Of a DNA stretch of 64,000 bases, positions 1 to 8,701 are shown piece by piece. Position 1 is the first letter of the stretch. Every line of letters begins with the position of its first letter. The notes beneath the pieces were generated by a model, which worked only from the letters and a program-made list of their open reading frames with translations, was not told the DNA's origin and ran no database searches. Location: assembly GCA_963745235.1 (NCBI GenBank), contig CAVUXE010000057.1:1-64000 (forward strand), read 5' to 3'. This DNA comes from an uncultured Spirochaetota bacterium (GTDB lineage: Bacteria > Spirochaetota > Spirochaetia > SZUA-6 > Fen-1364). Both the position numbers and the translations under genes were made by a program.

Positions 1-720
1 GTCATCACCAGGGAACACTTCGCGGAGACTTTCATAGACGTCAATTTCGGCGCCTTCGCCCAACTCATCCGGGGTCTTGTGCTGCGCCTTGCGATTCAGT
101 ACATCAATCTGTTTCAAAAACTGTTCCCGCTCGCGATTATGCTCGGCCTGAACTTTGAGGATTTGCAGGTCACGGTCCTTTTCAAGCGCAGCACGCTGCT
201 GATCCAGCTCCTTCTTGCGGGCCGCTTCCTGCTCCTTGAGCTTCGCCTTGGCCTGATCGCGCTCCGTGGTCAGAGTGGAAAATTGGGCATTCCATGCTTC
301 CTTTGCCTTGGCCTCAGCCTGGGCTGCCGCCTGCTTGATCGCCAGGTCGCGCTCGGCGATCACCTTCTTGGCGGCCTCTTCCTGCTCCTTGAGCTTCGTC
401 TTGGCCTGATCGCGCTCCGTGGTCAGAGTGGAAAGTTGGGCATTCCATGCTTCCTTTGCCTTGGCTTCAGCCTGGGTTGCCGCCTGCTTGATCGCCAGGT
501 CGCGCTCGACGGCCATTTCAGCAACCTTTGCTTCAGCCTCCTTTTTTGCCTTTTGAACACTGACATCGATCTGCTGCTGCATGCGGCTTCGCTCGTCAGA
601 GAGTTTTCGGCGTTCCTCTTCCGCGATTCTTTCTTCGATCTCCTCGAACTTTTCCCTCGAGATCGTTGATCCGCACCAAGGGCATTTCTCCGTAGCTACC
701 CGAGGACCGGACGGCAACAT
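1..720 (-). CDS. DUF2130-like coiled-coil protein with N-terminal CPWC zinc knuckle (3' end runs off the window)
   Basis: Manual translation from ATG at 720 is open to base 1: MLPSGPRVATEKCPWCGSTISREKFEEIEER...KTPDELGEGAEIDVYESLREVFPGDD. The CxxC, long coiled coil and LGE...L...FP.D pattern resemble DUF2130. GGAGG lies upstream. The ORF track lacks it because there is no stop in the window. Confidence 0.7.
   Translation of the reverse strand, partial: MLPSGPRVATEKCPWCGSTISREKFEEIEERIAEEERRKLSDERSRMQQQIDVSVQKAKKEAEAKVAEMAVERDLAIKQAATQAEAKAKEAWNAQLSTLTTERDQAKTKLKEQEEAAKKVIAERDLAIKQAAAQAEAKAKEAWNAQFSTLTTERDQAKAKLKEQEAARKKELDQQRAALEKDRDLQILKVQAEHNREREQFLKQIDVLNRKAQHKTPDELGEGAEIDVYESLREVFPGDD
211..508. 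repeat. 153-bp (51-aa) intragenic tandem duplication
   Basis: Near-identical copies at about 211-355 and 364-508 (CTTCCTGCTCCTTGAG at 225 and 378), encoding ERDLAIKQAA.QAEAKAKEAWNAQ.STLTTERDQAK.KLKEQE twice. Confidence 0.95.
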
Positions 721-769
721 CTGTGCTCACAAGACACCTCCAATCCTCTTTATAAAAGGACCTAAAAGG

Positions 770-799
770 AACTTATCACTCCTTTTACATCCTTGTCAA
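770..799 (-). promoter_or_regulatory. Putative sigma70 promoter of the DUF2130-like gene
   Basis: Minus strand TTGACA (799-794), 18 bp, TAAGTT (775-770) with an upstream TG, in an AT-rich patch. Confidence 0.45.
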
Positions 800-835
800 G
801 TCCTTTTCGCCGGTAGGCAATTGGGCACAGACGCT

Positions 836-988
836 CGGTGGGCTGGGCACGGCTCACGCAAGGCCCGCCCCAACCCGGGCCACGCCGCCCTGGCCCGGCT
901 GGAAAAGGAAGGCACGGTGACGGGTGTGATCACACAGAACGTGGAAGGCCGACATCGCGCTGGAGGGTGCCGCTCCTGCCCACCCTGA
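836..988 (+). pseudogene. Internal fragment of a sirtuin (Sir2/CobB NAD-dependent deacylase)
   Basis: KARPNPGHAALARLEKEGTVTGVITQNVEGRHRAGG matches the sirtuin A.PN.GH.AL...VITQNVDGLH.AG segment. There is no N-terminal GAG.S motif, catalytic HG or C-terminal domain. Confidence 0.7.
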
Positions 989-1300
989 CCCGGTAGCAGG
1001 GGCACCCTGCTGCGGGTTCTCTGGCAGGCGGGGGCGGGCTCCGCCTGCGCGCGCGTGGGCCGCGAGGGCGTGCACGTGCCACCGATCGCCATCTTCAGCA
1101 TCGCCAATGGGGTGCAACCTCCTTCTTGGGGGTTGAAAGGTTTTTATTTCTTTGACGCCCCCCTTTGGGCCAGAGACACGCGGCGTCCTTGCCGCGCGTC
1201 TCTGGCCCTCTTAAGAAGGAGCGCCCCAACATGGACGTTGGGGCGCGTGGGCATGCGGTCGGCCCGTACCGATCCTTAGAAAGTCCGAAGGCCGGGAGAT

Positions 1301-1496
1301 CTACTTTCGAGTCAGTTCGTCCAGAGATGACGTCCAGCGCGGCGGCGATCTGCTGAATGGTCTTGATGGTCGGGTTCTTGTTCACCCCGGATTCCAGCTT
1401 GATCAGGGTGCTGTAGGTGACGCCTGCCTTCTTGGCCAGCTCTTCCTGGGACAGCTTGCGTTGTTTCCTGAGCTTCTTGATGTTCTGAGCAAGCAT
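1301..1496 (-). CDS. XRE-family HTH transcriptional regulator (1-bp insertion near 1328)
   Basis: MLAQNIKKLRKQRKLSQEELAKKAGVTYSTLIKLESGVNKNPTIKTIQQIAAALDV. Removing one base gives the typical end SLDELTRK* with TAG at 1303-1301, so the longer ORF-track tail to 1095 is probably an artefact. Confidence 0.85.
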
Positions 1497-1504
1497 AATT
1501 CCTC

Positions 1505-1544
1505 TTGACAACCTATCAGTATATTGCTATCATCACGTTGATAG
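1505..1544 (+). promoter_or_regulatory. Sigma70 promoter of the recombinase overlapped by a palindromic operator
   Basis: TTGACA (1505-1510), 17 bp, TATCAT (1528-1533). Inverted repeat CTATCA-N6-TGATAG at 1527-1544, plus an extra CTATCA half-site at 1513-1518. Confidence 0.65.
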
Positions 1545-1620
1545 TTTACTGAGTAGATTGCTAGTAATTGGTTGATCCTAAGTCTCGCGGGCTGATTTGG
1601 CAAGGAGATAGGTCTGTCGC

Positions 1621-3192
1621 ATGAGCAGCGCGGCGCCCCAGAGAAAAGTAGCCTTCTACATCCGCGTCTCCACCGAACGCCAAGCCAAGGTCGAAGAAGG
1701 CTCGCTGAAGAACCAGGACCAGATGCTGCGCGCGGAGCTGGACCGGCGGAACCTCCAGCACAAGGACTGGGGCGCCTTCGTGGAGAGCTACGTAGACGAG
1801 GGCATCAGCGCCAAGACCACCAACCGCCCGGCCTTCCAGCGCCTCATGCGGGACATCGAGCTGGGCCGCATCGACACGGTGATGTTCACCGAGCTGAGCC
1901 GGCTCTCCCGGTCCCTGAAAGACTTCCTGAACATCTTCGAGTTCGCCCAGCGGCACGCCTGCGACCTGGTGTGCCTGAAGACCGAGATCGACACCACCTC
2001 TCCCTACCAGGGGCTGGTGACCAAGATTCTGATCGTGTTCTCCGAGTTCGAGCGGGAGATGACTTCCCGCCGAACGGCCATCAACGCCTATGAGCGCAGC
2101 AAGCGCGGCCTGGCCAACGGCGGGCAGGTCCTCCTGGGCTACCGGCGGGACAAGAAGCACAAGGGCCGCCTGCTCATCGACGAGACCGAGGCCGCGGTGG
2201 TGCGGGCTATCTTCCAGACCTACGCGCGGGAGCAATCCATCCGCCGCACCACGGATCGGATCAAGGAGCGCTTCGAGGGCAAGAGCCCGCGCTTGAAGCG
2301 GATCACTCCCGGCAAGATCTACAGCGCGCTGAACAACAAGGGGTACGTCGGCATCCGGCAGATCAACACGCACAGCAAGGACGGCCGGGAGGAAGTGCCG
2401 GCTGCGTGGGCGCCCATCGTCACCGAGCACCTCTTCCAGAAGGCGCAGACCATCCTCAAATCCAACACGGACCGCTACCACCGCCGCGGTCCCGAGCGCT
2501 ACCTCTACCTGCTCTCCGGACTCCTGGCCTGCGGCAAGTGCGGCCAGCGGCTCCAGGGCAGGAGCGCCTACTCCTCCAACGGCAAGCGCCACCGCTACTA
2601 CTCCCACCGGACCAAGTGCCCCGAGGGCGGGCTGGACCGCATCGACGCGGAGATGGCGCAGGAGCTGGTGCTCGCGTGGCTGCGTGACGTCGCCTCCAAC
2701 GGCGAGCGGTTCCGGGAGCTTGAAGCGCAGGGCAGGAAGCGGATCGCGCATCACATCGGCGAGCTCCGGGAGTCCCTTCGCGGCCTTGAGGCGGAGGGCG
2801 CCGCCATCGAGGAGCGCGTGGAAGCGCGGATTCAGGAGCTCACCAAGACCAGGACGGAAGCGGTCCGGGAATCCATCGAGAAGAGCATCCTCGACCTGCG
2901 GCAGCGCAAGAAGGGGCTCGAAGAGAAACAGACGTTCGTCCTCGATGCCATCCGCCAGACGGAATCCATCCTCAAGAGCCAGGAGGACCAGTTCACCAGA
3001 TACAGCCGGTGGATCCGGAAGGTGCTCGACCAGACCGGGGAAGGCCTCAAGCTCGGCATCCACGGGCTGATCTCAAGGCTGCTCTTGATGGACACGGAAA
3101 TGAAACTGGCTCTCTCAGGGGTCGACCTGAAAGAGCCAGTTCGCGTGGCGTTCTCCTTCGCTCCCCCGGCCGGACTCGAACCAGCGACCTAG
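1621..3192 (+). CDS. Large serine recombinase (resolvase + recombinase + zinc-ribbon domains)
   Basis: YIRVST catalytic motif, DEGISAK...RPAFQRL, LSRLSR, SEFERE, LLSGLLACGKCG zinc ribbon and a C-terminal coiled coil. AAGGAG RBS upstream. Confidence 0.95.
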   Translation: MSSAAPQRKVAFYIRVSTERQAKVEEGSLKNQDQMLRAELDRRNLQHKDWGAFVESYVDEGISAKTTNRPAFQRLMRDIELGRIDTVMFTELSRLSRSLKDFLNIFEFAQRHACDLVCLKTEIDTTSPYQGLVTKILIVFSEFEREMTSRRTAINAYERSKRGLANGGQVLLGYRRDKKHKGRLLIDETEAAVVRAIFQTYAREQSIRRTTDRIKERFEGKSPRLKRITPGKIYSALNNKGYVGIRQINTHSKDGREEVPAAWAPIVTEHLFQKAQTILKSNTDRYHRRGPERYLYLLSGLLACGKCGQRLQGRSAYSSNGKRHRYYSHRTKCPEGGLDRIDAEMAQELVLAWLRDVASNGERFRELEAQGRKRIAHHIGELRESLRGLEAEGAAIEERVEARIQELTKTRTEAVRESIEKSILDLRQRKKGLEEKQTFVLDAIRQTESILKSQEDQFTRYSRWIRKVLDQTGEGLKLGIHGLISRLLLMDTEMKLALSGVDLKEPVRVAFSFAPPAGLEPAT

Positions 3193-3233
3193 TGGTTAAC
3201 AGCCACCCGCTCTACCGACTGAGCTACAGGGGA
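3161..3233 (-). tRNA. tRNA-Asn (GTT), CCA not encoded
   Basis: TCCCCTGTAGCTCAGTCGGTAGAGCGGGTGGCTGTTAACCACTAGGTCGCTGGTTCGAGTCCGGCCGGGGGAG folds as a cloverleaf with anticodon loop CTGTTAA and discriminator G. Confidence 0.97.
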
Positions 3234-3268
3234 ATGTTCCATCAAGGAAGCAAAAAACCGTCTGAATG

Positions 3269-4291
3269 TCAAGGGTTCGCAGCGGCGTTGCCTACGACAA
3301 TCGGCACCACCGCTTCGCACTTCGCGCATGTGTTGCCGCGCAAGCCTTCCACCCGAACCGTGTATCCCATGCGGCGCACAAGGACATTCCTGCAGTTCGG
3401 ACACAGAGTCTTCGATTCCTCGTTGCCCACGTTCCCAACGTAGACGTAGTTCAGGTGGCTGAGGGCCGCCTCCGCCATTCTCTTCACAAGCGTGGGTGAC
3501 GTCGCAGGAATGGTGTACTTGTACTGCGGGTAGTAACAGGAGAGGTGGAGCGGGATGTCACGGCTGAGAGACGCCACAAACGCGGCAAGACTCTCCATCT
3601 GCAGCGCGTCGTCGTTCTTTGTCGGGATGACCAGCGTGGTCACCTCCAGGTGGACCCGACCCGCCGCCTGGCCAAGGAACCTCTTTACCTCATCCAGCTT
3701 GCCGCCCGTCTCCGCGCGGTAGAACTCGGAATCGAATGACTTGAGGTCGATATTCGCCGCGTCCATCAGCGAAAGGACCTCTTCCCCAGGCTCGGCGTTG
3801 ATATAGCCGTTTGATACGAGGACATTCTTGAGCCCTGCTTCGTGGGCGGCCCGCGCCGCATCCAGCAGGTACTCGGCGTGGATCAACGGTTCCGAGTACG
3901 TGTAGGCGATTCCAAAGGACCCGGCATCCTTTGCTTTTCGCACAAGGTCCGCTGGGGTGACGGGCCAGGTCTCTACGTCAGTGGACTGGGAGATCTGCCA
4001 GTTCTGGCAGAACTTGCAGCGGAACGAGCAGCCAACGAATCCTGCCGACAGGATGGTGGACCCGGGATAGAAGTGATACAGAGGCTTCTTCTCGATGGGA
4101 TCAACGGCAAGTGCCGAAATCCTGCCGTAGAAGGGGAGTCGCAGCGTCCCCCCGCGGTTGAACCTGACCTTGCACACGCCGTGGCCGCCCTCTGAGATCA
4201 CGCATCCGTGCGGACACAGCGAGCAGACTGCTTTTCCGTCCGCTCGCCGCGTGAACCAGAGCGCCTCCCGGGTCAGGCCGCCGTCATCCAT
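3269..4291 (-). CDS. amrS: AmmeMemoRadiSam system radical SAM enzyme
   Basis: C.LCPH.C...G.C.VR N-terminus, DPIEKKPLYHF, CSFRCKFC radical SAM triad, YTYSEP and a C-terminal YVYVGN...CP.C. Confidence 0.9.
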   Translation of the reverse strand: MDDGGLTREALWFTRRADGKAVCSLCPHGCVISEGGHGVCKVRFNRGGTLRLPFYGRISALAVDPIEKKPLYHFYPGSTILSAGFVGCSFRCKFCQNWQISQSTDVETWPVTPADLVRKAKDAGSFGIAYTYSEPLIHAEYLLDAARAAHEAGLKNVLVSNGYINAEPGEEVLSLMDAANIDLKSFDSEFYRAETGGKLDEVKRFLGQAAGRVHLEVTTLVIPTKNDDALQMESLAAFVASLSRDIPLHLSCYYPQYKYTIPATSPTLVKRMAEAALSHLNYVYVGNVGNEESKTLCPNCRNVLVRRMGYTVRVEGLRGNTCAKCEAVVPIVVGNAAANP

Positions 4292-4292
4292 T

Positions 4293-5456
4293 CTACCCCA
4301 GCTTGGCCTTGATGGCCTCCACCTTGTCCGTCTTTTCCCAGGAAAAGCCGTCCCGTCCGAAATGACCGTAGCTGGCCGTCTCGCGGTAGATGGGATGCAG
4401 CAGATCCAGGGTGGTGATGATGCCCTGCGGGGTCAGGTCGAAAACCTCGTCCACTGCTTTTTCGATCTTTTCATCAGGGACCTTCCCTGTTCCGAAGGTG
4501 GACACGAAGAGCGAGACTGGTTTTGCAATCCCAATGGCGTAGGCGATCTGGACCTCGCACTTTTCGCACAGCCCCGTGGCGACGATATTCTTGGCAACGT
4601 AACGGGCCATGTACGAGGCGGAGCGGTCCACCTTGGTTGGGTCCTTGCCGGAAAAAGCCCCGCCGCCGTGTCGGGCCATGCCTCCGTAAGTGTCGACAAT
4701 GATCTTCCGCCCCGTGAGCCCCGTGTCCCCGTGCGGCCCTCCGATTACGAAGCGACCGGTGGGATTGATGTGGTACACGGTCTTCCCATCCAGAAGCGAG
4801 GCGGGGATGGCCTTCTTGATGACGCACTGGATGAGCGCTTCCTGGAGCTCTTTGTACGACACTTCCTCCGAGTGCTGATGGGAGAGCACAACAGTTGCCA
4901 CCCGGGCCGGCTTTCCGTCCTTGTACTCCACGGAAACCTGGCACTTTCCGTCCGGCCTCAGGAAGTCGAGGCTGCCATCCTTGCGCGCCTTGGAGGCGGT
5001 CAGCATGATCTGGTGGGCCAGACTGATGGGCGCCGGCATGAGGCTCGGAGTTTCGTTGCACGCATACCCGAACATCATTCCCTGGTCTCCAGCACCCATC
5101 TCGTGATGGAGCCCTGTCCCGTTCACCCCCTGGGCGATGTCCGGGGACTGCTTCTGGATCGTGGAAACGACCGAGCATGATTCATAGTCGATCCCGAAAG
5201 AGGGATCCGTGTAGCCGATTGCCTTGAGGACGCCGCGCACCACATGCTGAAGATCGATGTAGCCAGTGGTGGTGATTTCTCCGCCAACCAGCACCAGCCC
5301 GGTCGTTGTGAACGATTCACAGGCCACGTGCGACGCGGGGTCCTGACGAAGCGCCTCGTCCAGAACCGCATCCGAGACCTGGTCACAGACCTTGTCCGGG
5401 TGCCCTTCGCCAACGCTTTCCGATGTGAACGTGAAATCTTTCCGCTGAGTCACCAT
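4293..5456 (-). CDS. metK: S-adenosylmethionine synthetase
   Basis: [19 protein letters not shown] and GGGAFSGKD motifs. Confidence 0.99.
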
Positions 5457-5520
5457 TGCTCTTTTCCTCTGTTCTGGAAAACCGTGCTGAAAAACGCAGG
5501 AGCTCGCGGGGGACGTGCCT

Positions 5521-5575
5521 GGTTTTTTAGCACTTTTTTACGTGGTTGCAATACACCGCAAATCACTCCACGGGA
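5521..5575 (-). ncRNA. SAM-II-like riboswitch aptamer in the metK leader
   Basis: Minus strand CGTGG-agTGATTT-GCGGTGTA-TTGCA-a-CCACG-TAAAAAAGT-GCTAAA-AAACC. It shows the P1 stem (CGTGG/CCACG) and the UGAUUU, UUGCA, A-rich linker and GCUAAA elements in SAM-II order, between a promoter and metK. Confidence 0.8.
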
Positions 5576-5593
5576 CCTACCGTCCGGGAGAGT

Positions 5594-5622
5594 ATTCTAT
5601 CCTCCGGCCTGCCGCTCGTCAA
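5594..5622 (-). promoter_or_regulatory. Sigma70 promoter of metK-amrS
   Basis: TTGACG (5622-5617), 17 bp, TAGAAT (5599-5594). Confidence 0.8.
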
Positions 5623-5634
5623 GCGCGCATTCAC

Positions 5635-7300
5635 CAGCAGTTCTCAGTTTGACCTCCTCCAAAATGAGCGCCGAGGGAAAGCCGGTAACGCCTGTCTAGT
5701 CCTAGACATGGCTCTGTATTGCCGCTACTCTGGTGCCAGAGCCATGGAACGGGAGGGGGTCTACCAGAAGCTGCTGGACTTGCTCGGGACCGCTATCGCT
5801 GCGTTTCCCGACCTGCGCGAAGGGCAAGAATCGTCAGTACTCCATGGTGGATATTGCGCGGGGAGCCTTCGGGGTGTTCTTCTGCCAGAGCCCGTCCTTC
5901 CTGGCCCACCAGCACCTCATGGAGCAAGCTCAAGGTCGTAATAACGGGCGGACACTCTTCGGCGTGCAAAGACTGCCAAGCGACAACCATGTCCGCGCTC
6001 AGCTGGACGCGGTGGATCCGCAGTTGCTGCGCCGCGTGTTTCAGCAGACAAGCGAGTACCTGATCAAGGAGAAAGTGCTGGAGAAGTTCCGCTCGGTGGG
6101 CAACACGCTCTTGGTGGCTTTGGATGGCACGGGGTACTTCGGCTCCGAGAGCATCCACTGCGATCAGTGCAGCGTGGCGCATCACAAGGACGGGCGCACG
6201 GTATACTCGCACAGCGTCGTGCTGGCGGCGGTGGTGGCCCCGAAGATGCCCCATGTCATTCCGCTGCAACCCGAGTTCATCCGCCCCCAGGATGGCAAGG
6301 ACAAGCAGGACTGCGAGCAGCGGGCAGCGCGGCGATGGCTGGCGCAGGTGGCTCCCCTGTACAGCGATCTGGATGTCACCCTGCTGGGCGACGCGATGTA
6401 TGCCACCCAGCCGCTGATCCAGGAGGTCCTGGATGCAGAAATGGGCTACCTATTTACTGCCAAAGAAGACTCTGCATCGGTATCTGTACGAGGAGATCGC
6501 CTCCTTGGAGAAACTCGGTGAGGTACACTCCCTGGAGCGCAGGCACTGGACGGGGCGAAAGCACCAGTTCTGGCGTTACCGCTGGGCAAACGGGGTACGG
6601 CTTCGAAACTCTGATGACTCCCTCAACGTCAACTGGGCCGAACTGAGCATCAGTGGCGAGGATGGCAAGAAGAGCTTCCACACCGCGTGCATCAGCAGTC
6701 ACTTGGTGAGCGAGGAAAACGTCGAAGAGTTGGTGCAAGCGGCCCGAACACGCTGGAAGATCGAGAACGAGGATATCAACACGCTGAAGACCAAGGGCTA
6801 TCACTTCGAGCACAACTTCGGTCACGGCAAGCTGTTCCTTGCTCAGACGTTGTTGTCGCTGAACCTGCTGGCATTCCTCTTCCACACGGTGCTGGAACTG
6901 CTGGACCGCCGCTGTGCCCTCATCCGCGCCACACTGCCTCGCCGCGATACTTTCTTCCAACACCTGGGGGTACTGACCCAATACATGTGCTTCGAGGGTT
7001 GGCAACAGCTGATGCTGTTCATGTTGGACGGCCTGAAGCTGGCCGACCCGGGCGGATAGACCCTCACCATCAGTCGAAGGCAATCCCGACTCAGCAGCTC
7101 ATTTCAGCCAAAGCCCACGCAACAGGCATGCCATAAAACATCCGCAAGTATTCTTCCTCACTTGAGATGCCCTCTCCCTGGCAAAGCCCGCTGTCAGTCC
7201 GATCCGTTCTCCACGCGTTCCCCATGACAAATTGGACGGGCCTCCCCACGTCGACTACGTGGTGGATTGGCTCCGGGCGAAGTCAAACTGAGAACTGCTG
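5635..7300 (+). mobile_element. Complete 1666-bp insertion sequence (DDE transposase, ISNCY-like)
   Basis: Perfect 19-bp TIR CAGCAGTTCTCAGTTTGAC (5635-5653; reverse complement 7282-7300) and 9-bp target duplication CGCATTCAC (5626-5634 and 7301-7309). Confidence 0.95.
5744..7059 (+). CDS. DDE transposase with two frameshifts (near 5820 and 6462)
   Basis: Joined frames read MEREGVYQKLL...FPDLR/GKNRQYSM...FFCQSPSFL...VALDGT...LLGDAMY/...RTRWKIENE..NTLKTKGYHFEHNFGHG. Confidence 0.9.
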
Positions 7301-7369
7301 CGCATTCACGCCCATGGAGCTCATCGAAAGTCGCTGATAGCAATTCGGAACAGACTCCCGCCGCGGTGA

Positions 7370-8701
7370 TCACCCTATCCTCACCGGCTGGCCGGTTGCC
7401 TCCAGCACGGAGAGCCACAGGGGGTCTTCCGGGGAGAGCATCTTGCGCCGCGAGCAGGCGATATTGATGGGAACATGGGTGAAGTGCCCGCTCCACTGGC
7501 CAATGATGATTCCGGTCTTGCCCGCCATTCCCGCATGGACTGCGTTCTGGGCAAGCTGGATGCAGTAGATGGCGTCATGGGCGTTCGCGGTGACGGAGCG
7601 GACCATGTAGCTGGGATCTATGTACTTGACGTTCACGTACAGGTCCGTCTTCTTGAAGTAGCTCTTGATGGCGTCCTTGAGGAACTGGCCGATGTCCCCG
7701 AGGGCGGGGTTTCCGGACTCGTCCTTTCTGCCGGATGCATCCTTCACGTACTCCTGGCCCGCCCCCTCAGCCACGATGATCACCGCATGGTCCCGCTTTC
7801 GAAGCCGGTCCTCGATCAGGGCGTACAGACCACCGGGGCCTTCCAGGCCAAAAGGCACTTCGGGGATCAGGACGAAGTTCACTTCCGCAAGGGCAAGCGC
7901 CGCGTTTGCCGCTATGAAGCCCGAACCGCGGCCCATGACCTTGACAATGCCGATCCCGTACGGCGCCCCGATTGCCTCCGTGTGGGCGCTGCGGATGCTT
8001 TCCGCCGCCACGGAGAACGCGGTCTCCAGGCCGAATGTCCGCTCCACAAACGAGATGTCGTTGTCCACCGTCTTGGGGATCCCGATGACGGCGATGGAGA
8101 GTCCGCGCTTCTCTATTTCCCGGTGAATCTCCCATGCTCCCCTGAGGGTCCCGTCACCGCCAATGGTAAAGAGAAGGGAGATGCCCCTCTTTTGAAGGAA
8201 GTCCACGATGAGCCCGGTCTCCTGCTGCCCCCGGGAGGAAGAGAGAATGCTCCCGCCCTTCTCATGGATGTCCTTGACGTAGTCCGGCGTAAGGAGGATG
8301 GGCTCGTAGCCGAGCTTCGGGATGAAACCCCGGTACCCGTAGCGGATCCCGAGGATTGACCGCACCCCGTAGCGGTAATGCAGCTCCATGACCAGCGTGC
8401 GGATCACGTTGTTGATCCCCGGGCACAGCCCGCCGCAGGTGACAATGGCCGCGCGGACCATCCCTCCGTCGAAATAGATCTTCTGCCGGGGCCCGGCCAT
8501 CTGGAAGGCGGGCGGCTCTATCCCGTCCTTCACCATGGCCTGGACCGCGTCACGGTCCACGTCAAAAAGAACCGAGTGGTTGTCCTGGACGTAGTTCGCG
8601 GTCTGGTCTCCGTCTTCCGTGTTCAGACCGAGGGGGGAGGGGATGATGGGCTCCCCGAGCGTGTCTACCCTGAGGTCCTCTGCCTTCAGCTGATTTTCCA
8701 T
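7370..8701 (-). CDS. pfkA: 6-phosphofructokinase, probably ATP-dependent (GGDG + PKT type)
   Basis: TCGGLCPG, GGDGT, PKTVDND, MGRGSG and YIDPSY. Start taken at MENQLK (8701). Confidence 0.92.
   Translation of the reverse strand: MENQLKAEDLRVDTLGEPIIPSPLGLNTEDGDQTANYVQDNHSVLFDVDRDAVQAMVKDGIEPPAFQMAGPRQKIYFDGGMVRAAIVTCGGLCPGINNVIRTLVMELHYRYGVRSILGIRYGYRGFIPKLGYEPILLTPDYVKDIHEKGGSILSSSRGQQETGLIVDFLQKRGISLLFTIGGDGTLRGAWEIHREIEKRGLSIAVIGIPKTVDNDISFVERTFGLETAFSVAAESIRSAHTEAIGAPYGIGIVKVMGRGSGFIAANAALALAEVNFVLIPEVPFGLEGPGGLYALIEDRLRKRDHAVIIVAEGAGQEYVKDASGRKDESGNPALGDIGQFLKDAIKSYFKKTDLYVNVKYIDPSYMVRSVTANAHDAIYCIQLAQNAVHAGMAGKTGIIIGQWSGHFTHVPINIACSRRKMLSPEDPLWLSVLEATGQPVRIG

Follow-up and report, generated by a model that had tools for sequence, protein, structure and literature searches.

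A large serine recombinase with a putative attachment site inside its own gene at the 3′ end of tRNA-Asn

The window analyzed here, the first 64 kb of contig C57 in the draft genome of an uncultured Spirochaetota bacterium (labeled G000; 104 contigs, 5.85 Mb, completeness rating 85.7%), appears to open with the right end of an integrated genetic element (positions 1-3168). The large serine recombinase (LSR) of this element would carry its attachment site, attP, inside its own reading frame, giving the enzyme a C-terminus that depends on the state of the element; we put the probability of this reading at roughly 0.8. Across the family of this recombinase, we find a long and a short form, a common junction at which they part, detached C-terminal pieces in related genomes, and a random mixing of the two states on the family tree. 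From these observations, we infer that the element encodes the long form when it is excised or not yet integrated. An initial annotation of the sequence had proposed an LSR element at the 3′ end of tRNA-Asn, with attP inside the integrase's own open reading frame (ORF). This proposal holds up, and the two forms part at the core sequence described below.

The junction between the integrase gene and tRNA-Asn

Features at the junction, in window coordinates:
1621-3192, plus strand: LSR gene, short form of 523 amino acids (ORF, Pfam)
3134-3158: att-site P arm, which falls within the integrase ORF (conserved columns in 11 attR and 4 attP)
3159-3168: identity block CGCTCCCCCG, the core, common to attR, attP-type long forms, and empty attB sites
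3162-3163: predicted central (crossover) dinucleotide TC, tRNA positions 72/71 (dyad symmetry of flanking motifs)
3169-3192, plus strand: host-derived last seven codons AGLEPAT and TAG, forming the B′ arm (antisense of T-arm and variable region)
3160-3233, minus strand: tRNA-Asn(GTT), the integration target, B′ side (ARAGORN)

Pfam matches to Resolvase (PF00239, 6.5e-33, residues 10-163), Recombinase (PF07508, 1.6e-12), and Zn_ribbon_recom (PF13408, 1.7e-06) identify the integrase as an LSR. Its motif YIRVSTERQ spans residues 13-21, with S17 presumably acting as the nucleophile, and C304, C307, and C333 are invariant across 45 long homologues. The coiled-coil insert of the zinc ribbon would correspond to long helices at 361-451 in an AlphaFold2 model of one of these, P0005 (built with the 45 long forms as alignment; mean predicted local distance difference test, pLDDT, 80.5). 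The ORF ends in ...APPAGLEPAT with TAG at 3190-3192 and overlaps tRNA-Asn by 33 nt; ORF and ARAGORN calls agree on this, as the initial annotation had stated in reading the end of the recombinase as tRNA antisense. This tRNA-Asn(GTT) is the only tRNA in the window, and the genome, with 48 tRNAs in all, has no other tRNA-Asn.

We aligned the DNA of 11 junctions between the N-terminal part of the integrase gene (N-part) and the tRNA, 4 contiguous long forms, 6 detached C-terminal pieces (C-parts), and 12 empty tRNA sites. The only stretch common to all classes is CGCTCCCCCG, which is made up of 2 nt of the 3′ trailer, the discriminator, and the 3′ strand of the acceptor, and which encodes APP (3160-3168) in the integrase frame. 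Long and short forms part at 3168/3169, before the T-stem. Since long and short forms, and likewise occupied and empty sites, share only this block, the T-arm is host DNA. The final AGLEPAT codons and their stop lie to the right of the core and are thus host tRNA antisense, and the crossover that the initial annotation had placed at the T-arm shifts to the core. By the same comparison, codons 1-516 are element DNA; the residues they encode are 94% identical to the 662-aa P0005. Going by sequence identities, which alone allow any position within the block, strand exchange would have to fall within 3159-3168. The ~10 nt of identity between attP-type and attB-type sites compares with a tRNA copy of ~17-45 nt or more in classical tRNA-gene islands, where the adjacent recombinase is of the tyrosine rather than the serine type.

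The flanks change at the same place. To the right of the tRNA, the window shows synteny with the related genomes G015, G006, and G011 (78-80% identity over the whole 2297-nt query), and leftwards, similarity to the relatives' native flank stops at 3159. That native downstream flank consists of two hairpins, is common to four of five relatives with the same tRNA (listed below) and to G018, whose tRNA-Asn allele differs, and is unlike window 3100-3158.

Both arms carry short motifs. GTTCG occurs at 3139-3143 in the P arm and TCGAAC at 3176-3181 in the B′ arm. Counted from the first C of CTCCCCC, TCGAAC stands at +15 in B′ in 11 of 11 junctions, and GC[AG]AAC stands at +20 in P′, on the C-part side, in 8 of 10. 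For LI integrase, the zinc-ribbon motif is described as lying 5 bp nearer the center in attB than in attP (PMC3783163); the offset between the B′ and P′ motifs of this family is the same 5-bp shift. From motif spacing only, the central dinucleotide is predicted to be the TC at core bases 2-3.

The wobble pairs of tRNA-Asn are native

The acceptor of the tRNA (TCCCCTG/CGGGGGA) contains a U6-G67 pair and its T-stem (GCTGG/CCGGC) a U51-G63 pair, both legible on the tRNA strand and both correctly reported by the initial annotation; the anticodon stem has G27-U43. The annotation had further taken the tRNA 3′ strand to be a wobble-tolerant one supplied by the element. We find that the tRNA is identical at 74 of 74 positions in five relatives (G006, G010, G011, G015, and G017), and that tblastn with the LSR returns nothing in the fetched tRNA loci of these five genomes. 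Thus, the U-G pairs are native, and an element-supplied strand is not needed to account for them. As grounds for abandoning its view, the annotation had named the same wobble pairs in LSR-free relatives together with the absence of any duplicated tRNA fragment. The pairs are indeed shared, and a duplicated fragment does exist in the form of a 42-nt copy at C50:5625-5666. The displaced tRNA end that had been predicted, CCAGCCAGGGGAG, has 0 exact matches, and 0 of 23 one-mismatch matches lie in a T-loop context.

Long and short forms across the family

A protein search for the 120 best homologues of the integrase gives 45 with the C-terminal module, 66 ending near the junction, and 9 partial sequences. 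Close short homologues end as ours does, at 523 aa (e.g., P0003 with 94% and P0008 with 89% identity). Close long homologues of ~660 aa (P0005, 94%; P0006, 94%; P0009, 93%) are collinear with ours up to ...APP and then continue with DQPxAN... for 146 aa. At the family level, these ~660-aa and tRNA-fused 523-aa forms bear out the earlier claim that the C-terminus differs between states.

Antisense T-arm tails terminate 50 of the 66 near-junction homologues, so the overlap of ORF and tRNA is not due to chance. The tails come in 21 spellings: 17 read APPAGLEPAT, and others include EGLEPPT, DRLELPT, and VRLELTT. The other near-junction homologues end in an X unit (2; see below), in PPV (4), or otherwise (10, including two broken long forms). 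On sequence grounds, 21 spellings point to many different tRNA alleles and hosts, and the broad host range suggested by the initial annotation does look wide.

On six metagenome contigs, a homologue abuts an ARAGORN-called tRNA-Asn at the same junction, with three alleles represented; on two further contigs (L038/L039), the LSR abuts a 43-nt tRNA fragment, not a full tRNA. Among the 92 genomes of the order-level search set, the N-part abuts tRNA-Asn in G000, G024, G026, and G033, and in G031 it lies next to tRNA-Asn as a pseudogene, judged by coordinates only. A scan of contigs gave one close match only, L112, from an uncultured Spirochaetaceae metagenome-assembled genome. Run labels, with small shares, hint that the family is common in wetland and sediment metagenomes.

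A FastTree phylogeny restricted to the N-part, with alignment columns running no further than P0005 residue 500, covers 102 proteins, namely all 45 long forms (P0004 and P0007 counted as long) and 57 near-junction forms; 9 N-terminally truncated near-junction proteins and the 9 partial homologues were left out. Our clade contains 70 proteins, 15 of them long, and the long forms occur dispersed among the short ones as their sisters, with ten long/short sister pairs on the tree. We count 14 state changes in the clade; 1000 label shuffles average 13.9 (range 10-15), with 14 or fewer in 671 of them. Because the distribution matches that of shuffled labels, the state is not inherited in this clade. 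Such a lack of phylogenetic signal is expected if each lineage was sampled either free or integrated, and since the result is an absence of signal, it is not inflated by kinship. A deep sister clade is all long (32 proteins, 40-45% identity), and two members inspected have no APP motif; some of its members lie on megabase contigs.

One long form, P0048 (55% identical to ours), has a tRNA-like ...SGTLEPNT... straight after the junction, and its short sister on the tree, P0047, ends in ...RAGLEPATR. In this sub-lineage, attP and tRNA may share a longer stretch.

The C-terminal module

In the P0005 model, the LSR core would end near residue 500 and be followed by a disordered linker (503-525), where pLDDT is below 50 and where the junction (514-516) falls. 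The C-terminal module is modeled with pLDDT 84-93 over most of 532-661, as a strand and four helices (532-580) followed by a beta-hairpin and three helices (600-661). The predicted pattern at 600-661 matches the start of the Recombinase domain (174-238) in the same model. Pfam agrees to the extent that seven of seven scanned C-parts match Recombinase positions 2-50 above the cutoff (best E 1.2e-07; the first scanned C-part reaches 32.3 bits against a cutoff of 21.1). Helix-turn-helix (HTH) families match C-parts weakly, and more distant long forms reach HTH_38 and HTH_23. Folded alone with seven sequences, the C-part has a mean pLDDT of 58.9, and Foldseek against the PDB returns no match at E ≤ 0.001 (the best, a Pax paired domain, has E 0.086); an hhalign comparison of the C-part with our N-part is weak (probability 2.8%, E 0.016, residues 148-214). 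Sequence and model together suggest a weak HTH combined with a duplicate of the Recombinase domain's first half, predicted to bind DNA. Integration would then remove a bipartite, predicted DNA-binding module and leave a complete canonical LSR core.

Detached C-parts and X units

Residues ~513-661 of the long form match elsewhere in G010, G013, G015 (twice), G024, G026, and G000. The core precedes the detached C-parts of G010, G015, G024, G013, G026, and L053/54. Those in G010, G015, and contig L054 are intact ORFs of 144-146 aa; those in G024, G013, G026, and our own contig C50 are damaged. The C50 copy, the only C-part of G000, is a degraded remnant of 60-80 aa (C50:6650-6895, 44-59% identity).

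A further unit, here called X, precedes the C-part in G010, G024, G015 (twice), L051/52, and L053/54; it does not in G013 and G026. At its smallest, X measures ~110 nt, with a core at either end. T[CA]GAAC stands at a P′-type distance on the left and GTTCGA at a B-type distance on the right; the left end also carries, through the core, a conserved 25-codon ORF tail, LPLLDELRTYCYEHKIEEIPALLAV, with synonymous variation between copies. Larger X units include one with BrnT/BrnA on our own contig C98, one of 1.1 kb in G015, and one in G014 with HicA/HicB-like ORFs, judged from translations. A terminator-like flank lies upstream of X in G010, G024, G014, and C98 and resembles the flank of full tRNA-Asn in G014 and G002. 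Local alignments offer no support for X as a copy of the 3′ end of the N-part, being no better than those of shuffled sequences.

The simplest reading of X is accretion, with X as a non-autonomous, att-bounded unit. The right end of X and the tRNA together form a near-perfect dyad, and this site would be where the LSR element integrated. Excision via the inner core would then yield N-C (long) circles, and excision via the outer core N-X-C circles. Core-bounded X units may be non-autonomous cassettes moved by the same integrase, some with toxin-antitoxin pairs; as such, they would leave an improved, nearly palindromic attB beside the tRNA.

On C98 (4120-4840), the X unit with BrnT/BrnA has a native-type flank and core on its left. 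Its right boundary reads GTTCGA, 11 nt, core, and then a degenerate tRNA-like stretch, with DUF433/PIN-like (DUF5615) pairs following. It looks like an unoccupied attB-like site beside a pseudo-tRNA.

Proposed mechanism and alternatives

The free form of the element would encode an integrase of ~660 aa, composed of the LSR core, a disordered linker, and a 146-aa C-terminal DNA-binding module. The crossover core would lie in the linker at the APP codons and is identical to the last bases of tRNA-Asn, so integration would leave the tRNA unchanged. Integration would fuse codons 1-516 to seven codons and TAG from the tRNA antisense, replacing 146 residues, and would carry the C-terminal module over to the element's far (left) end. 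It is also conceivable, although we think it doubtful, that this domain swap acts as a directionality switch: the long enzyme, made only by the circle, would integrate and the core enzyme of the integrated element excise, with no separate gene for a recombination directionality factor (RDF). Under such a switch, the detached module, translated alone from the left end, may help excision, and X offers an in-frame start in several loci.

Several observations weigh against the proposal. The left end of our own copy is unassembled, with the contig starting 1620 nt upstream of the integrase gene, and tblastn with six C-parts finds no intact C-part in the G000 assembly. No detached C-part lies on the same contig as a matching junction of N-part and tRNA. 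X stands between native-type flank and C-part in six of the eight resolved left junctions, and we found none that leads cleanly from native flank through core to C-part; L051/L052 and G015 have the order N-part, X, C-part, with the halves unfused. At empty sites in this genus, the left (B) arm has no mirror motif; that motif (GTTCGA, 11 nt, core) is present in the native flank of G023 and at the right end of X. No evidence places the long-form contigs outside the chromosome, and on L037 the genes beside the long form are not obviously those of a mobile element, going by ORF starts only. No read or contig contains a circular junction or an empty site from the same population. In the read search, the best runs contain 0.10-0.18 of the sequence words; the reads gave only short unitigs of relatives, without joints at the core. 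Terminal overlaps are absent from all 23 metagenome contigs.

The initial annotation favored a crossover of the LSR in the quasi-symmetric T-arm, with the element supplying a wobble-tolerant tRNA 3′ strand (G63 and G67). T-arm antisense does lie within the integrase ORF, the distant long form P0048 retains GTLEPNT after its junction, and the mixed T-stem of the C50 copy could mark T-loop recombination, by another element. Such a crossover is hard to credit, however, given the complete identity of the tRNA in five relatives without an LSR match at the fetched locus, the divergence of long and short forms before the T-stem, and the absence of the predicted Watson-Crick displaced end, the C50 copy having the same G63 and G67. 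Nor do we find it at all probable that long and short forms are separately inherited lineages from one old truncation, with attP outside the gene and an incidental tRNA overlap. The all-long deep clade without the APP core, some of it on megabase contigs, would suit that history; within our clade, by contrast, state changes are as frequent as under shuffling, the tRNA-derived tails take 21 different forms, the point of divergence coincides with the break in synteny, and the detached, intact C-parts are preceded by the same core.

The element might also persist as proposed in the family while our copy is a stranded remnant, perhaps fixed, whose left end and C-part were lost or scrambled into the debris on C50 and C98, so that the long form could no longer be restored. 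The degraded state of the only C-part in the assembly, the rearranged att-like pieces on C50 and C98 with toxin-antitoxin cargo and an inverted tRNA-like repeat, and a SIR2 gene fragment 700 nt upstream of the integrase are in keeping with decay. The 523-aa ORF is nevertheless unbroken and shares 94-97% identity with copies from metagenomes, promoter and XRE partner of the gene are conserved, and absence from an assembly that is 85.7% complete and whose contig ends in the element at a repeat is weak evidence; we therefore judge a stranded remnant improbable. A circle in which the halves are never fused is an alternative that we rate as quite improbable. There, X would lie between N- and C-part, the integrase would be short in both states, and the gene of the C-part would start in X. 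N-X-C contigs exist, X precedes the C-part in six of eight contexts, and the right part of X offers an in-frame start 8 codons before APP (GTG in G015, TTG in L053/54), which in G024 and L051/52 is an ATG overlapping the stop of the 25-codon ORF. Yet 45 of the 120 homologues are contiguous long ORFs, three of them 93-94% identical to ours, X of G010 has no in-frame start, and N-X-C arrangements are also expected from outer-core excision or accretion.

Candidate left ends and other insertions at tRNA-Asn

Candidates for the left end of our element were tried and rejected. The tRNA-like copy at C50:5625-5666 (38 of 42 positions identical), the only one that a repeat search turned up, reads on into non-integrase sequence. 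It keeps G63 and G67, its T-stem mixes two tRNA-Asn alleles known from relatives, and its anticodon stem is foreign; as it is paired with an inverted 26-nt copy around a HepT/MNT pair, it is the footprint of another element. The order along C50 5625-7069 is a terminator-like flank, the core, the 42-nt tRNA-Asn-like 3′ fragment, the HepT/MNT toxin-antitoxin pair, the inverted 26-nt copy (~6660-6685), the degraded C-part (6692-6895), and an inverted, frameshifted X (6989-7069). Synteny was no guide, because the FecR/DUF6600 gene beside the C50 copy is multi-copy, and the native tRNA flank of G006 and G011 (1.5 kb and 12 kb) has no counterpart beside the att-like sites of G000.

The C-part contig of G024 was rejected as an element left end: it is an island in the acylphosphatase-glmS spacer, without a clear right end. 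On this contig (G024:C93; L022/L132), X and a frameshifted C-part (L022 ~5200-5450) sit in that spacer and not at a tRNA. The empty acylphosphatase-glmS spacer of G000 (C58:75290-75330) contains GCTCCCCC, so a bare core may serve as a secondary site.

Relatives carry 30-51-nt copies of the 3′ end of tRNA-Asn that extend as far as the anticodon loop: L014 (G034:C12) 3977-7891, L018 (G019:C85) 959-3413, and L038/L039. One example is an exact 43-nt repeat 3.8 kb from a full tRNA-Asn gene, with no recognizable integrase between. Thus, other elements also use tRNA-Asn, probably with a crossover in the anticodon loop. The 42-43-nt tRNA-Asn fragments in C50 and relatives belong to other insertions.

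The region upstream of the integrase gene

Features upstream of the integrase, in window coordinates:
1-720, minus strand: gene encoding a coiled-coil protein whose N-terminus is Cys-rich; truncated at the contig start and located on the junction's element side
1095-1511, minus strand: XRE-family HTH regulator, divergent from the integrase (Pfam HTH_3, 1.3e-16; start TTG 1511 or ATG 1496)
1156-1275: double-hairpin, terminator-like module behind the XRE gene, conserved across loci
1505-1533, plus strand: sigma-70-like promoter upstream of the integrase (TTGACA-17-TATCAT, 11/12, TG)

The XRE gene upstream of the LSR is kept in other loci. The sequence at 1505-1533 is a strong predicted sigma-70-like promoter, from a scan that found 2 sites against 0.3 expected. 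Behind the XRE gene, the double-hairpin module is 80-90% conserved in many loci, and an inverted copy lies directly behind the integrase C-part in L022, L026, L029, L030, L037, L053, and L054; therefore, one terminator-like unit closes both divergent genes. Within the coiled-coil gene, a 91-nt stretch is repeated 153 nt further on with 94.5% identity (window 210-453), and this repeat probably broke the assembly at the contig start. The isolated SIR2-family gene fragment at window 850-960, between the coiled-coil and XRE genes, matches Pfam positions 59-96 of 180 (E 1.5e-05) and contains no complete ORF.

Comparison with known systems

Integration-dependent truncation has reportedly been found in mycobacteriophages BPs and Brujita, which use a tyrosine integrase, and in SSV1, integration is said to partition the integrase gene. 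Integrases of the A118/LI type mostly target protein genes. In domain order (Resolvase, Recombinase, and a zinc ribbon with coiled coil) and in their short att sites, they resemble the present family, from which they differ in ending after the zinc ribbon and in having attP outside the gene (PMC3783163). CyranoPS illustrates the integration-dependent truncation of a phage regulator in a tyrosine-integrase phage (10.64898/2026.10.29.762952). Phages of this type are similar to our element in having attP within a gene whose protein differs between free and integrated states, a difference that acts as a switch in those phages; in the passages available, they use tyrosine recombinases, and the truncated protein is usually a repressor, or else the integrase gene is split and inactivated.

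Two serine recombinase systems come closer. In the ssrA islands of Dehalococcoides, the gene for the 540-aa serine recombinase DsiB overlaps the last ~70 bp of ssrA or a 20-bp repeat, and islands are found in tandem at one site (PMC3146451). The common ground is a serine recombinase gene of ~540 aa that overlaps the 3′ end of a tRNA-like gene, a likeness of description. DsiB targets a tmRNA, with insertion placed midway along the T-loop, a 20-bp repeat, and a small partner recombinase, DsiA, and the passages of that paper available to us show no defined conserved C-terminal domain being cut off (PMC3146451). Here, the target is tRNA-Asn, the core consists of the last 8 nt and trailer, a folded 146-aa module is removed, and the 1.6 kb available upstream shows no further recombinase. 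In the SPbeta-like Bacillus phage Goe14, attP lies within the LSR's own C-terminal coding region, and integration shortens the enzyme by 131 aa, with a 97-aa ORF remaining at the opposite end (bioRxiv 10.1101/2021.11.22.469490). The passages available report no RDF gene or sprB-like RDF, and its authors speculate on a regulatory role in which the long form integrates and the short one excises (bioRxiv 10.1101/2021.11.22.469490). Compared by description, our family differs from Goe14 in its tRNA target, in the recognizable DNA-binding domains of the part removed, and in having both states documented family-wide.

Thus, as far as these passages go, an integrase with attP in its own gene is already known from DsiB at ssrA and from Goe14. 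New here are a tRNA target with a ~10-nt core at the very end of the tRNA, a severed part that is modeled as a conserved, folded, predicted DNA-binding module on a disordered linker, and the documentation of both states across a large family. We found no description of a tRNA-Asn LSR family in the literature covered, which excluded subscription journals and supplements.

Implications

Serine integrases are prized in genome engineering because they work one way, and their reversal needs a separate, hard-to-find directionality factor. In the family presented here, the same protein occurs with or without its C-terminal module, as the proposal has it according to the free or integrated state of the element. 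The family thus provides a natural experiment on whether the length of an enzyme can encode direction, an idea raised in print twice, for DsiB and Goe14, without a test as far as those passages go. With the nearly universal 3′ end of tRNA-Asn as target, a core of ~10 bp, and 21 tRNA variants, the family seems to have a wide range of hosts and a landing site that can be predicted. It also indicates that tyrosine integrases are not alone in targeting tRNA genes and restoring them.

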